Below are positions 2,711 to 8,764 of a stretch of 64,000 bases of DNA, in pieces; position 1 is the stretch's first letter; the number at the start of each line of letters is the position of its first letter. Location: NCBI GenBank assembly GCA_008632985.1, contig QPGO01000025.1:434001-498000 (forward strand). The letters are read 5' to 3'. This DNA is from Psammoneis japonica (taxonomy: Eukaryota). Position numbers and translations under genes: made by a program. The notes below the pieces were generated by a model. The model made no database searches and had not been told where the DNA came from. It saw only the letters and a list, made by a program, of their open reading frames with translations.

Positions 2711-2957
2711 AGTCTACCGTATCTGGGGGCGGGTCGCGCAGCCTGACGATGCGAGCAGAAGGTTAGGTGCCCCTGGGCGGAGCTGAGCTGAGAACGGGCG
2801 ACGGGTGGGAACGGCGGCAATGGTGCGGTGCTCTCGCGCTGCAGCCGGGCCTTTTAACTGTTCACGTAGCGAGATAAAGTGGACTCATCGCAATCAACAC
2901 AGACCTTACAGACATCGTCTCTGCACTGTGCACTAGAGCGTGCAATCGAACCAAACA

Positions 2958-3317
2958 ATGACTGACTCATCGCCACTACCGCCAAATCGATTTGAATTGG
3001 AATTGGAGTTCATTCAGTGCTTGGCGTCGCCCGCATACCTGCATTACTTGGCAACGACGGGCACATTGGACGATCCAGCTTTTATTGAATTCTTGAAATA
3101 TTTGGAGTACTGGAAGAAGCCTGAATACGCCAAATTCTTGCAGTACCCGCATTGTCTCTACTTTCTGTCGCTTCTGATTGAGAAACCGCAATTCCGACGA
3201 GAACTAAATAACGTGGCCTTTCGTAATTTTGTCCATGAGCAGCAGTTTTACGCATGGCAGTATCGGGCGTCCACTCTGTATGGAAGAGGACTCAATCAAG
3301 AAAACGACACCAAGTAA
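2958..3317 (+). CDS. MED31: Mediator subunit 31 (SOH1)
   Basis: RFELELEFIQCLASPAYLHYLA...FIEFLKYLEYWKKPEYAKFLQYPHCLYFL; ATG at 2958. Confidence 0.95.
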   Translation: MTDSSPLPPNRFELELEFIQCLASPAYLHYLATTGTLDDPAFIEFLKYLEYWKKPEYAKFLQYPHCLYFLSLLIEKPQFRRELNNVAFRNFVHEQQFYAWQYRASTLYGRGLNQENDTK

Positions 3318-3721
3318 TTACGACATAATCAGAATGCTCCCAAACAATGCTATCATGCAAGGTTTCGATACTTTGGTTGTATCACGAAGCCACGAACCAG
3401 TTATCTCGATAGAGAGCTCTGAAATGTCCGAAGCACAGAATGGGTAGCATTCTTCTGTTTCTGAACTAATTATAAACCAAGGTTGAATGAAACTCAGTGT
3501 ATTGAGCAATCAGTCGTGCCGCATAGTATTCGAAGTTTTGGTACTTTTTGGGACCAAGTTACTGGTTCAAGCGCTCATAGAAATCTCATCCTTACTTCCT
3601 ACATGCTACCGGTAGAGTTACCCGTCTGCACGAGTTTACGAGAGCTCACACATACCGTAAAACCGTTGGTACAGCTTCTTGAGAAAAACGTAGCTGCACA
3701 TATCCAAGGCGACGGGGACGG

Positions 3722-6700
3722 CTAGAGGTCAAAGAACTCGAGGTGTATGAGTAACCGTGAATGCCCCAATTGCTTCAACAGGGTCTCTCGAATATTCTTC
3801 TGAAACAGTCGTGGTCCACAGGTGTAACAAGGGATCTCATCGGGCTGTTCGAACTTCTTCAACGTCGACGAAAGCAACTCTAAGCTTACCCGCTCTGTCA
3901 GCAAATTCACGTTTGGGAATGTTGACTTGATTTGATCCGCGTTCTTCTCGGTTTCTGTATGGTTCTTGCCCGTCAAACACAGGGTGAAATCAAAGAAAAG
4001 TTGTTCATTCTGCTTGTCGTACTCCTTCGAAATTTCTAACAGTTCCTGTAGGAATGGAAATTCGATTCCCCTTTCTGAATGGATCAAACATAGGTAGATC
4101 TTCTCTTTAACAAGCCTCTGACGAACCAACTTTACCACAAAACGTATGGCACTCATAAAAGCGACAACGCCAACGCCTGCGGAAATCATAAGGCGTTGCG
4201 TCCCATCTACTGGATCGGGGAGAACAAAATTCCCTGCCGTTGTCAACAACTGACAGCTCGCTGGCGGTTCAATTTTGTTAACCAAAAAGGGCGAAACACG
4301 TCCGCCGACAACCTCCTTGATAAGAAATTCGAGATTGTCGCTTGTGCGGGTGACAGGGTCTGGGCAGGAAGCAATTGAGTAATATCTGTTTACATTCTTC
4401 CCGTCGATTTTCCATCGTAGCCGACCAAACTGCCCTGCCTTGTGAGATACTGCCTGGTCGGCCTTGAATCGGAGAATGACCGTGTCGTTTACCGCTATCT
4501 TTTCTTGTAAGGTCAACACTGTCTTTTCAGAAACCTTAGCGGTCTCAGCCACGGGACGAAATGGCATCACTAACTCTTTGACAGTTGGACAGCAGGAATT
4601 CTCGGATTTGTATTCCGGTATCATTGATACAGCTATCGTATCCCACAACAAAGCCCATTCCAGTGCTGCATCCGCCGTGAATCTTTTACCGAATGTCTGC
4701 GACGCCACTGACATCCAAGCAGTGCCAGCGGGGCCCAACTTCTCAACAGTTACCCCATGATGAATCCGATGACGCCGCCCAAGAGAATGCAATCGATCTA
4801 AAGTTGCCGACATGTCGTTTTCGTCCAGCATTTTGTTGACGACACTGCGGTACCTGTCAGCGGCCGACAATGGCTCCGTTGTGCTGCCAACAACCAATGA
4901 GGCAAATGAATCGAAAAACTTGTGAAACTCTGACGGAGCATGGTCTCGGAATTCTCGAAGAGCCACGCAGTTGACTACGCCTCCGATAGCACGATCCTTC
5001 TCATCGGTCAACATTTTGCTTAGGATAGACACCCCCTTGGTCCATCCAACCATCATATAATTCAGCATGATACCAATGACAAAGCTCCACGCGTCCCTTG
5101 TTTCCCCGTGAAACTTACTGCGCCCAAGCATTTCTTTCAATGTTGCGAGTAATGGTGCGGTAAACGAAAGCATTTCTCGACTGCCAACCAAATGGTGTAC
5201 ACGGTGTCGGGCCCCAAGATCAATCAGACAAGGCCGCAAGACTTCTTCAATGTCTTCGTTGATGCGAATGAGAACGGCGTTGAGCTGATGAACAAAATTC
5301 TCTCGCTGCATAGCCATACTAGGTGAACCCTTGAACATTTCAGTTATCAAGGGATCACTGTTGATAAAACGGTCATAAAAGCTTTCGGAGAATTCTTCTT
5401 TAGAAAACATGTAAATTTCGTTCCATTGCTCGCTTACGAGCTCTCTTTGAATGGCCCGAAACGTATCGCGCAACTGGTCGATCCCAAATAAGGATAGAAT
5501 AGATGTTGAGAGGACATTGGACAAGCCAATGGTAATGTAGTGACCAAGTCGAGTGACCATTGTGAGCGGCAAAATGGTCAAGAAAAGCGCCTTCATTTCG
5601 TCCGAGTTGAGTCCTTCCACGAGCTGACTACTAGCTTGGTGAAAGGATTTCCACGAGCCGTGTCACTTTGCCATGCTCTGTAGTGCTGAATAACAAGCCA
5701 CAATTTGTCCACAAAATCAGGTTGCTCTTCTCTGAGCCAAAGGGCAAAGTACATATAGCCTCTTCTTGCAAGAGCATCATGCATTCGGGGGAAAAAGTCC
5801 CTCTTCTTTGATTCCCATTCCTCATCAGTCGTAGTACGCGATGCCTTGAGAATGGCAGGATGTAAGGGTGGAATGATAGCCCGGTATAATTGGACCCAGT
5901 ACTGCATGTCTTGTTCCAACGTAGGCGCTACAGAAATGGCAGCAAACGCAAACGCATCCGAGGCGAACCACAAACTAGACGGTGGAATACCGTAATGAAC
6001 CAAGCGTGCAACAAAGGCATCCCGATGTCTATTAAATTCTGCTGGATTGTCAATCTCGCGAATAAATTCTGCAAGCTTGTCATCGAAATCGCGTCCGAGT
6101 AGTGGGATGGAGACCCCGCCGAAGCAAGCAGCCGCTGCAGAGTCTTGGGAATTCAGGAATTCATAGAACCGCGCACCAAACGAGTGTCCCTCCACCTTTA
6201 AAAGCGTTTCATGAATCGCCTTTATATGTTCCTTGGAAGTTTCACTGAGATTCACTTCATAGTCTGGACCCTCATCAGCCTGCGTCGCCTTGACGTGCTC
6301 TTGTGCCTTCTTTAACAAAAGGCGTGCGATCGACCGAGGCAACTTGGAACCGAGAGCTTCCATTGAGCTCATTGCAAGTTGTTGAGGAGTGGAAATCTCG
6401 AGTTCGAGTAAGGATTCAAGGTACTTAGTTTTGTTGATCTCGGAAAGAAAGTCCTTGAGTGGCTGAATCTCCCTCTCCTCGAGCGCTTTTTTCTTTAGCA
6501 ATCTAGCAACCATGCGTGGTACATCAGCAGGAACATTCTCATCAAGGATATCATCAATGCTAGTCTCCGCTTTGATCAGAACTGGGAGAAACTTCATCTT
6601 TTTAGCTGTTCTAAGCAAGGCCCTCAAGTCATAAGTTTGAATGGCCCTTTTCTCCAACAAGCGGAGGACCATGCGGGGTATCTCCTCCGGTTGCCCCACC

Positions 6701-6813
6701 TTTTCGCTGTCAGCCAAGTCGTCGACTTTGCATCCTTTCAGGAATTCGAGGTACTTCTCCTTCCCGACCGCCTGAAGAAACAGGGCGAGCTCCTGTTCCG
6801 TTTCGTCTTCCAT
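3722..6813 (-). CDS. Multidomain flavohaemoglobin-like protein: 3 SAM-like repeats + at least 3 globin folds + FAD- and NAD-binding FNR domains (about 1030 aa; one apparent frameshift between 5593 and 5662)
   Basis: Overlapping ORFs 5593-6813 and 3722-5620. Repeats of the type LxxFLxxxxKxKYL...PRMVxRLLxKxA; globin motifs FGARFYEFL, FYDRF..DP...MF, DLGARH, SLGRRH; reductase motifs GQF, RYYSIAS, GRVS, SAGVGVVAF, CGP, IHLEFF. Confidence 0.8.
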
Positions 6814-7294
6814 GGCAGGCGGCGAGAGTGTCGCTTGCTACTTGTCGTCCCCTTCGGTAGGTATGCTAGAGTTTGGAAGTTGGTCGTTCTGTACTGTGTT
6901 GTACAAGGTTGGCGGGAAATCCTGGGCAACACCTGGGGCAACATGCATGAACAACGGTTTTGGTCAGAAAAGAGGTAATGAGTCACCCTAGTTAACCGTT
7001 AAGCACGTCACAAGACGTGGCACGCGCGCACGGTGGCGTCTTCTGCCGGAATTTGGGGAATTTCAATTTTTCGATCAATTTTCAGCAGTGTTTTTGTTTC
7101 CCCGCTGTTTTCGTTGCACTGTAGTTTCTCGCTTGTTCGCCCTCATCACTCCATCACCACCGATACTTCAGGTTGAATAAACGTTGTGACTGTACAGTAG
7201 ACGACGACGACTCTGTCTACCTACTCTCTCCCGTTCTTTCAAAAACATTCGTCACTTGGCTTCACACGTTTTGTAAAACTCCCCTTTGATAACA
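6814..7294. promoter_or_regulatory. Putative bidirectional promoter of the two globin genes
   Basis: 481 bp between divergent ATGs; TGAGTCA at 6979-6985; inverted ACGT boxes CACGTC-acaa-GACGTG at 7004-7019; CGCG run at about 7023-7029. Confidence 0.55.
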
Positions 7295-8402
7295 ATGGAA
7301 GCGGTCCTTGAAGCATGTGACCTTTCGCAATTGGCTTCGCCCTTGAAAGACATGGGCATTGAATCGTTGGATGAGCTTACGTCCTGCGAAGCGGAAGACA
7401 TTGTGAGCGACTTGGATGTAGATCTCGCACAGGCCAAGAAACTGCTAAAGGCGGCAGAAGATGCACTCCTCATGGAGCGCCGCAAAACCGCCATTCAAAG
7501 TACGTGGCAAGCTGTTGGAGACTCGCTTGGTGTTGAAGCCACCAAGCTGTTCTATTCGCGTTTGTTTGAAAAGTATCCAGAAGTCAAACCTATGTTTGCT
7601 GATGCAGATATGGACGCCCAAGCCGAAAAGTTGCTCAAGACAGTCACACTTGCTGTAGACTATTTGAATGATGTAGAATCGTTGGTTCCGATTCTACAAG
7701 AACTCGGCGCACGAGTAAGTCTGGTGTCATGTCTGTGTCTTGTATCCAAAGTCATCTCTAACAATTCACATGTCGACGTTCGACTACTACTCATAGCACG
7801 CCAACGAATGGAATGCCAAACGCGAGCACTACGATGCGGTGGGTGAGTGCCTCTTGTGGACGTTGAAGACTGGCTTAGCCGATGCCTGGACGCCGGAGGT
7901 GGCTGACGCGTGGACGTGGGTCTACGGGGTAATTGCTACTACAATGGCGGATGCCGGAGACGAGGCGCTCCTAGAGTCTCGCAAGAAAGCTGTCCAGGAC
8001 TCGTGGCAGACGGTGAAGGATGCACTCAACGTAGAAGCCACCAAGCTCTTCTACAAGCGGTTGTTTGAGGAACACCCGGAGGTAATACCGTATTTCCAGC
8101 ACTCAGACATGGATGAACAATCAGAAAAATTATTCAAGACTGTAAGCTTGGCGGTCGACTATTTGAACGATGTGGAAGGATTGGTGCCTGTTCTACAGGA
8201 GTTGGGTGTACGTCACGCCACTGAATGGAAGATTGAACGCAAACATTACGATGCGGTCGGAGAGTGTTTGATATGGACCCTAAAGACAGGATTGGGGGAT
8301 GCTTGGAACGATACACTAGAAGATGCGTGGTTGTGGTGTTATGGACTGATTTCCAAGACCATGGCCGATGCTGCTGACAAGGCTGTTAAAGGCGATGATT
8401 GA
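7295..8402 (+). CDS. SAM-like domain + two tandem globin domains (flavohaemoglobin-family globins, no reductase); intron 7715-7796
   Basis: Splicing GTAAGT...CATAG joins ELGAR|HANEWNAKREHYDAVGECLLWTL, which matches the second domain ELGVRHATEWKIERKHYDAVGECLIWTL; both domains have TyrB10 (LFY), PheCD1, GlnE7 and HisF8. Confidence 0.92.
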
Positions 8403-8764
8403 CCGCAACAGCCACCAGAGCTTGTAATCACGCGTCGCTAACACAAAAGTAGAAGTAGTGTGCTCGCAGTCTTCTTCTTGTTAGATAGCTGATTGCTCTC
8501 GTCTTGTCATGGCTCTTTTTCTGTATATGTATAGTCGGAAGACTTAGTTTACGAGTAGGAAGTTGTAACTTTAGCTCTCGTGGACAAACGACACAAAGAC
8601 GGAGCAATCCGAGAAAAATAGTGTAAAGGATAGGTAATGAGCTTCAAGTAACGGTTCCAACCGTCGTGACTAGACTCCACGCTTCTCGTTTTTGGCGAGA
8701 TAAGCCGCACACAACATGACACGACTGCAAGGGATTGGTGATTCGGGATTGTGAACAACTCGCA

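Follow-up and report, generated by a model that had tools for sequence, protein, structure and literature searches.

A divergent pair of diatom globin genes with related, predicted SAM-like N-terminal domains

We analysed a 64,000-nucleotide stretch of the genome of the diatom Psammoneis japonica (GenBank assembly GCA_008632985.1, contig QPGO01000025.1, positions 434,001 to 498,000), referred to below as the window, in which two globin genes lie head to head at positions 3722 to 8402. The large gene encodes a protein of about 1030 residues with eight modules, namely three N-terminal repeats, three globin folds (G0, G1 and G2), and the FAD part and the NAD part of an FNR-type reductase. The small gene encodes an N-terminal domain of about 60 residues (the N-domain) followed by two globins (Ga and Gb), without a reductase. 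Profile comparisons relate the N-domain to the repeats of the neighbouring protein, and we tentatively read the pair as a nitric oxide (NO) dioxygenase system of two components. The features of the locus are listed here in window coordinates; open reading frame is abbreviated as ORF and hidden Markov model as HMM.

3722..6813, minus strand: large gene, intronless, a single ORF of 1030 codons once an extra base from run X1 is counted
6813..5593, minus strand: ORF A, the upstream half of the large gene as the window has it, 406 residues
5620..3722, minus strand: ORF B, the downstream half of the large gene as the window has it, 632 residues
5657/5658: indel of one nucleotide that breaks the frame of the large gene, a G run on the coding strand being one base short in the window
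6274..6795, minus strand: three tandem five-helix SAM/(HhH)2-like repeats of about 58 residues (residues 7-180; repeat HMM)
6628-6795, 6454-6627 and 6274-6453, minus strand: the same repeats singly
5839..6252, minus strand: G0, a 3-on-3 globin fold without proximal His (ORF A residues 188-325; structure-based)
5054..5446, minus strand: G1, globin (ORF B residues 59-189; Pfam Globin 42.2 bits; 3s1i E 1e-8)
4616..4948, minus strand: G2, divergent globin (ORF B residues ~225-335; second Pfam Globin stretch)
3725..4510, minus strand: FNR-type reductase, with FAD-binding part 4226-4510 and NAD(P)-binding part 3725-4192
6814..7294: spacer between the start codons, exactly 481 bp, taken as a shared divergent promoter
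7295..8402, plus strand: small gene, ATG at 7295, stop at 8402, one intron, spliced product of 341 residues
7295..7714, plus strand: exon 1 of the small gene, with the N-domain (7295-7474) and helices A to F of globin Ga
7715..7796, plus strand: intron of 82 nucleotides, GTAAGT..CATAG (GT..AG), just before the HisF8 codon of Ga
7797..8402, plus strand: exon 2 of the small gene, with the rest of Ga (to ~7973), complete Gb (7977-8387) and the stop

Two globin proteins with related N-terminal modules

A profile of nine N-domain sequences matched a profile of 22 repeats over 57 columns (hhalign 96.9 %, E 1.8e-10), and separately built alignments (A2, A4) gave 96.1 % and E 3e-9. Judged by these profile-profile matches (96-97 %, E 1e-9 to 1e-10), the N-domain of the small protein and the repeats of the large protein are homologous, so that the two neighbouring genes share homologous N-terminal modules. 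The preliminary description of the locus had both genes start with SAM-like helical domains.

The fold of the shared domain, as modelled, is SAM-like. AF2 modelled the N-domain as five helices (pLDDT 90.2), and when this model was compared with the PDB by Foldseek, 28 of the 32 listed rows were SAM domains (TMq 0.62-0.76), including those of Caskin1, SLy1, Sans, Eph receptors, tankyrase and BICC1, while the other four were RadA. Structure comparison by VIA, in which small helical models often reach a Z of about 8, gave 8.0-8.4 for the SAM domains of EphA5, Sans, EphA2, tankyrase, SARM1, ARAP2 and SLy1. Repeat 3 of the large protein best fitted NusA AR2, a member of the (HhH)2 group (Z 9.8, root-mean-square deviation 1.8, 62 aligned), with the SAM domain of Sans at 8.9. 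Searches of the ESM Atlas produced weak leads for the N-domain (0.78 to an HHH_5 cluster and 0.76 to a SAM cluster) and no usable match for the three-repeat region. Domains of the SAM and of the (HhH)2 kind both include protein-docking modules.

Among the relatives there is also a globin-less protein of 691 residues (P0133) with five repeats of about 58 residues, Ala/Ser-rich linkers between them and repeated N-terminal 'KCPF' motifs. It is the only member of the family above the Pfam cut-offs, and exceeds them for SAM_2 (36.4), SAM_EPH (37.6), HHH_5 (31.6) and RAD51D_N (28.0) together.

The globins of the large protein differ in how much of the haem pocket they retain. G0 has no Pfam Globin match and is recognised from the AF2 model of ORF A (10 sequences, mean pLDDT 82.6; G0 block means 84-95). 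This part of the model matched the Glycera haemoglobin 1hbg with a VIA Z of 15.2 (root-mean-square deviation 2.5, 135 aligned), 46 of the 50 listed VIA rows were globin folds, and Foldseek gave TMt 0.70-0.75 to Scapharca HbI. TyrB10 (Y217) and PheCD1 (F231) are invariant in G0. Since the position aligned with HisF8 is Leu, Phe or Met in all 10 sequences, and the nearby His273 of the window is not conserved (Arg or Lys in six of nine relatives), G0 is a globin fold that has probably lost haem ligation and is probably not a haem globin. An invariant Tyr274 (5990-5992, minus strand) stands three residues past the missing HisF8 position, and an invariant PPLHP follows directly after helix H of G0 (5857-5871, minus strand); these could provide another ligand or a motif for contacts between domains.

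G1, in contrast to G0, keeps the full set of TyrB10, PheCD1, GlnE7, PheE11 and HisF8, in 11 of 11 aligned family members. G2 was detected by our own globin HMM (i-E 4.8e-4) and by BLASTP against the small-gene globin (E 0.002), and its HisF8 lies inside 'RRH' in all 11 relatives. The distal pocket of G2, the globin that adjoins the reductase, is unusual: Phe occupies B10, and Arg-Tyr in helix E replaces GlnE7 in 10 of 11 (window ~4800-4830, minus strand).

The reductase scored 33.6 bits for FAD_binding_6 in Pfam (cut-off 21.1) and 18.7 bits for NAD_binding_6, below the cut-off of 22.2. The RxYS, GGxxS and CGP motifs of FNR-like reductases, together with a C-terminal EFFDL, are readable in the family alignment. 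The nearest solved chains are ferredoxin/flavodoxin reductases of the Fpr type (3fpk, 9.3e-9; 1fdr, 5.3e-8; also 2xnj, 8dos, 4f7d, 1a8p and 2qdx).

For the small gene, Pfam Globin (cut-off 22) gave 74.8 bits on exon 2 and 24.2-25.2 bits on exon 1. The nearest solved chains to Gb are 3s1i/3ubc (1.7e-20) and 3wfw (4.4e-20), which are bacterial single-domain globins ('hemoglobin-like flavoprotein') that we take to be the Hell's Gate globins. Vitreoscilla haemoglobin (1.3e-15) comes next, followed by the flavohaemoglobin chains 1cqx, 3ozu, 1gvh and 4g1b at 1.6e-11 to 2.4e-9 (1cqx 1.6e-11, 1gvh 1.9e-10). In the HMMER alignment to 3s1i, TyrB10, PheCD1, GlnE7, LeuE11 and HisF8 of the small-gene globin are all matched. 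G1 and Gb share 24 % identity (E 5e-9). Taking both proteins together, HisF8 is present in Ga, Gb, G1 and G2 and absent in G0, and TyrB10, GlnE7 and HisF8 occur together in three of the five globin folds. Scanned with HMMs in all six frames, the 64-kb window as a whole yielded no other copy of the shared domain or of a globin.

The content that the preliminary description gave for the two genes therefore largely stands. Three SAM-like repeats, globin folds and an FNR-type reductase in the large gene are supported by the repeat HMM, Pfam and structure, as are one SAM-like domain, two intact globins and the lack of a reductase in the small gene. Its "several globin folds" in the large gene are three, the first of which is seen in structure only and lacks the proximal His, and its TyrB10/GlnE7 signature applies to three of the five folds but not to G0 and G2.

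Reading frame, splicing and the spacer

Contigs from three coded runs of one sample (X1, X2 and X3) were placed on the region, and none of those from X3 had a place there. In the window, ORF A and ORF B are both long, and they overlap in different frames. Contig 1 of run X1 (7785 nucleotides, depth 60.9) carries an extra C behind 5657, and with this base put in, the large gene runs through 1030 codons without a stop or an intron. Relatives of full length also cross the junction of the two ORFs unbroken (P0003, 1034 residues; P0005, 1038 residues; P0130, 1032 residues). Because the base in the X1 contig restores a single ORF, the frame break in the window is an assembly error or belongs to one allele. 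The X1 contig also differs from the window by single bases at 3701, 6741, 6943, 6956 and 7746 and by a 10-nucleotide insertion, and the extra base may therefore be allelic in origin. An intron at the break was considered and ruled out, as the frame overlap leaves about 70 nucleotides, the relatives align through it and X1 supplies the missing base.

Differences between the window and the read contigs are dense over 6741-7231, mostly in the spacer and the 5′ untranslated regions, with very few in coding sequence. They comprise single-base changes, the 10-nucleotide insertion (behind 6950), a 5-nucleotide insertion behind 7121 and deletions at 7151 and 7200, and the pattern looks like that of two haplotypes.

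In the small gene, contig 10 of run X2 (1283 nucleotides) covers 7103-7714 and 7797-8466, leaving out the intron exactly, and the relative P0013 reads through the intron at the same place. With the indel at 5657/5658 and this 82-nucleotide intron at 7715-7796, which the X2 contig confirms, both gene structures of the preliminary description have to be amended. Six small X2 contigs fall on the large gene and its 3′ flank (3600-3946, 4072-4261, 4313-4541, 4983-5334, 6691-6847). X2 contigs enter the spacer as far as 6847 on one side and 7103 on the other. We read X2 as cDNA-like because one of its contigs skips the intron; if this is right, both genes are transcribed and the untranscribed part of the spacer is at most ~255 bp long (6848-7102).

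The distance of 481 bp between the divergent genes was given correctly at the outset. Half-way along the spacer, between the X2 contig ends at 6847 and 7103, an inverted pair with ACGT cores (CACGTC, four nucleotides, GACGTG) occupies 7004-7019 and could be a bZIP-type site. With the settings used, the repeat search of the spacer returned one 12-nucleotide direct repeat in two copies only and no inverted repeat. Just downstream of the 3′ end of the large gene lies a gene for the Mediator subunit Med31/SOH1 (2940-3317, plus strand; Pfam 6.6e-35).

Relatives and gene linkage

The closest relatives of the window proteins come from diatoms, namely Thalassiosira exigua (69 % identity), T. oceanica, Odontella aurita and MMETSP transcripts. 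In public records, proteins of these families are named 'hypothetical protein', 'Globin domain-containing protein' or 'ferredoxin-NADP reductase/hemoglobin-like flavoprotein'. An exhaustive search of 1.84 billion cluster representatives with ORF A returned only nine relatives (clusters) at E <= 0.001, and a word-indexed search with ORF B only six; P0133 was turned up by the exhaustive search only. The repeat HMM found three repeats in ORF A with i-E values of 3e-29 to 1e-30 (its own seeds). It found repeats in eight of the nine relatives from the exhaustive search, the ninth (P0134) having a flavodoxin domain there; their number is three in every large-protein relative that is complete at the N-terminus, and five in P0133. 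A profile search with the repeat alignment for longer proteins, with 8000 scored candidates, gave eight members of the same family and no other architecture, which is weak evidence.

The small-gene family is commoner than the large one, with at least nine full N-domain-globin relatives in addition to the records from T. oceanica (THAOC_11870), T. exigua (ACHAWF_013870) and Odontella aurita. A metagenome scan yielded 80 loci, among which only three (L001-L003) seem to be eukaryotic and closely related to the small gene. At L003 (9869-10577) and L002 (1688-2334), an N-domain-globin gene with 48-49 % identity stands among unrelated genes.

Members of both families are found on one contig in four other assemblies:

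ENA contig of 37453 nucleotides: P0127 and P0001 (two parts of a large gene) with P0013 (exon 2 of the double globin)
ENA contig of 36431 nucleotides: P0131 with P0010
Logan contig of 5266 nucleotides: P0130 (1032 residues) with P0026 and P0029
ENA contig of 9525 nucleotides: P0132 with P0021

The genes on the 5266-nucleotide Logan contig must adjoin because the contig is so small. For the members of the large family that bear SAM-like repeats, 16 contigs are on record, and these cases make up four of them. The other 12 are uninformative, since most of them barely exceed the gene and the small-family matches considered were the best 120 of 291.

The large protein has a sister form, P0134 (1144 residues, four cluster members), with the same G0-G1-G2-FNR body. 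At its N-terminus, a presequence and a Flavodoxin_1 domain (Pfam 8.8e-24) take the place in which the three repeats otherwise sit, and its predicted FMN domain would make it a split diflavin reductase wrapped around the globins. As P0134 has a flavodoxin there, the N-terminal position of the large protein may be tied to electron handling. This suggests that the position serves such a hand-off either through a built-in shuttle, as in P0134, or through recruited partners, as in the SAM-like form.

Readings of the gene pair and comparison with known systems

The reading we tentatively favour is that the pair is a diatom-specific NO-dioxygenase system of two components, in which the shared domain mediates assembly. 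Globins of the F family with TyrB10 and GlnE7 carry out O2-dependent NO dioxygenation and need to be re-reduced, and flavohaemoglobins have an FNR module of their own. The large protein would be an expanded, flavohaemoglobin-like and self-reducing haem enzyme, with the FNR module behind the His-bearing G1 and G2; G1 would have the TyrB10/GlnE7 pocket typical of NO dioxygenases, and the pocket of G2 would be altered. The shared N-domain would serve for docking, either of the reductase-less double globin onto the large protein or of both proteins onto a common scaffold. Electrons from NAD(P)H would then pass through the FNR module and keep several haems ferrous, the ferrous haems would convert NO to nitrate in an O2-dependent manner, and both genes would be expressed from one short divergent promoter. 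Haem binding, NO-dioxygenase chemistry, reduction in trans, docking and co-regulation are thus what we infer for the pair. In one study, the genes of Phaeodactylum that are most sensitive to nitrate include one for a flavohaemoglobin-type globin, which is co-expressed with nitrate reductase and read as a NO dioxygenase (PMC6779911).

Several results weigh against this reading. The best Foldseek E value for the N-domain was 0.044, and none of the listed rows reached E 0.001. On the (HhH)2 side, VIA gave Z 8.5 for AF1548 and 8.1-8.3 for POLQ, Rad51 and NusA AR1/AR2, tying with SAM. The Pfam SAM_2 scores in the window proteins were 12.6-16.5 bits, under the cut-off of 20.5, and HHH_5 was below its cut-off too; in the orthologues, SAM_2 and HHH_5 matches were likewise sub-threshold only. 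Accordingly, of the SAM-like N-termini proposed in the preliminary description, the five-helix fold is upheld by AF2, Foldseek and VIA, but neither structure nor Pfam tells a true SAM domain apart from an (HhH)2 domain like those of NusA-AR and Rad51-N. For the reductase, the 14 PDB matches to ORF B (E <= 0.01) included no flavohaemoglobin chain over residues 355-535, and for this reason descent from a classical flavohaemoglobin stays unsupported. Run X2, the source of the splicing evidence, is recorded only as 'DNA?', and no RNA run is listed.

The linkage of the two genes also has its limits. Contig sharing was assigned from the same source and an equal nucleotide size in the protein tables, and not read from the sequence; orientation and spacing of the pair were read in the window only, the other assemblies showing that the contig is shared. 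The synteny expected in relatives therefore holds as contig sharing in four other assemblies, but it fails at L003, a locus from a 67-kb metagenome contig, where tblastn found no large gene within 10 kb on either side of the small one. None of the loci L001-L003 held the large gene, and linkage of the pair is not universal.

A bolder version of the favoured reading, which we consider unlikely, gives the three repeats the role of three docking sites for the double globin, so that one FNR module would serve up to eight haem globins (2 + 3x2). The result would be a modular, self-assembling NO-dioxygenase 'globin-some' in which the number of repeats sets the stoichiometry and the conserved divergent pair keeps the parts together, with P0134 as the hard-wired alternative.

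The main rival holds that the two proteins are independent enzymes, and we regard it as a serious, if on the whole rather unlikely, alternative. A local inverted duplication with domain shuffling would have produced the pair, and the shared N-domain would be inherited rather than a mutual dock: it would homo-oligomerise each protein or take both to a third partner or place, while a general cellular reductase reduces the small globin. Homologous N-domains and globins, as seen between G1 and Gb, are expected after a duplication. At L003 the small gene has no large one near it, the small family is much commoner than the nine clusters of the large one, and the word-indexed search with ORF B returned no large-protein relative sourced from NCBI, although T. 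exigua and T. oceanica have the small protein. On the other hand, both families share contigs in four other assemblies despite 30-50 % divergence, which is beyond what is expected of a relic of duplication. Furthermore, a TyrB10/GlnE7 globin without a reductase of its own depends on some electron donor, and such a donor is encoded at a distance of 481 bp.

Alternatively, the pair could be a gas sensor or signalling scaffold, in which the globins sense O2, NO or redox state, the SAM-like repeats assemble the complex and the FNR module resets the haem. SAM domains are typical of signalling scaffolds, G0 without its proximal His and G2 with its altered distal pocket resemble regulatory pseudo-enzyme domains, and the nearest solved globins include the sensor-like fusion 3wfw (globin and Roadblock/LC7). 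Nevertheless, Pfam found no output domain (kinase, cyclase or DNA-binding) in either protein, and in flavohaemoglobins a built-in NAD(P)H reductase together with a TyrB10/GlnE7 pocket marks catalytic turnover, which makes the sensor reading doubtful.

Less probable still is a reading in which the N-domain is an (HhH)2 module that binds nucleic acid and anchors the globins on DNA or RNA. In its favour, the VIA scores of (HhH)2 domains equal or exceed those of SAM domains (AF1548 at 8.5, NusA AR2 at 9.8 for repeat 3, Rad51-N at 8.2-8.9), HHH_5 is the best sub-threshold Pfam match for P0010 (2.2e-5) and P0007 (0.0089), and the top lead from the Atlas, weak as it is, is the HHH_5 cluster. However, the hairpin of DNA-binding HhH motifs reads Gly-hydrophobic-Gly, whereas in the repeats of the large protein the first hairpin position lacks Gly and the second is Pro-Lys/Arg-Met. 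In addition, the titles of 2jzb and 1u9l present the NusA AR repeats, which are the nearest (HhH)2 matches, as protein-binding modules themselves.

Finally, it is very improbable that the frameshift is real and the large gene dead in this organism, leaving no working system: the window itself is frameshifted and the other X1 differences could place the restoring base on another allele, but the sole read-based contig across the site has that base, both halves are otherwise stop-free over 1030 codons, and small X2 contigs map to both.

Flavohaemoglobins are the textbook NO dioxygenases on one chain, and globins without a reductase raise the question of what reduces them. This alga seems to encode both side by side, as an expanded flavohaemoglobin-like protein and a reductase-less double globin with the same docking-type domain. 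Should the two domains bind each other, the pair would stand as the first globin system built on SAM-like modules, with reduction in trans written into the order of the genes and with a bearing on how diatoms deal with NO during nitrate assimilation. If they do not, the pair would still be a rare, undescribed multi-globin architecture. In either case two of its folds lend themselves to study, the pseudo-globin G0 and the globin G2 with its Arg-Tyr distal pocket.

Compared with the flavohaemoglobins Hmp, Yhb1 and FHP, the large protein has likewise a TyrB10/GlnE7/HisF8 globin upstream of an FNR-type FAD and NAD(P)H module in one polypeptide. Those proteins, however, are two-module chains of about 400 residues, and with about 1030 residues and eight modules the large protein falls outside their architectural definition. 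It adds two globin folds, one of them without HisF8, and three N-terminal SAM-like repeats; the canonical G1 is separated from the reductase by the divergent G2; the reductase itself is nearest to Fpr-type FNRs among solved chains; and a reductase-less partner gene adjoins. The bacterial single-domain F-family globins (3s1i/3ubc, 3wfw and Vitreoscilla haemoglobin) are the nearest solved sequences, with Tyr, Phe, Gln and His aligned, but they are single globins of about 135 residues (3wfw with Roadblock/LC7), whereas the globins here stand in tandem behind an N-terminal SAM-like domain.

SAM scaffolds, such as the tandem SAMs of Caskin, tankyrase, Eph receptors and SARM1, have the same five-helix fold of about 60 residues as that modelled here (TMq 0.62-0.76; Z 8.0-9.8 with the (HhH)2 set), as do the NusA AR1/AR2 and Rad51 N-domain repeats. 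In both groups the domains occur in tandem and serve as homo- or heterotypic docking units, while the sequence similarity of the window proteins is below the Pfam cut-offs for either family.

The nearest described analogues, likened by description only, are two proteins of Guillardia theta (EKX33177.1 and EKX39126.1), which PMC4101818 presents from sequence only as chimeras of more than 1000 residues with three 3/3 globins and a putative cytochrome b5 N-terminus. They resemble the large protein in being algal, in exceeding 1000 residues and in having three globins, with a redox-type head in theirs; the paper mentions no FNR module (the word 'reductase' is absent from the main text), SAM-like domain or partner gene. 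In a globin census of 2006, T. pseudonana and P. tricornutum have only two small globins apiece (PMC1457004). Within the passages covered of PMC7475203, PMC1457004, PMC6779911 and PMC4101818, no SAM-globin or diatom multi-globin FNR protein is described. A full-text literature search, whose coverage leaves the 2013 review 'Microbial eukaryote globins' outside, also found no description of a fusion of a SAM/(HhH)2-like domain with a globin or of a diatom multi-globin FNR protein. Set beside these systems, the large and small genes are a real variant on the theme of flavohaemoglobins and chimeric globins, and a new one.

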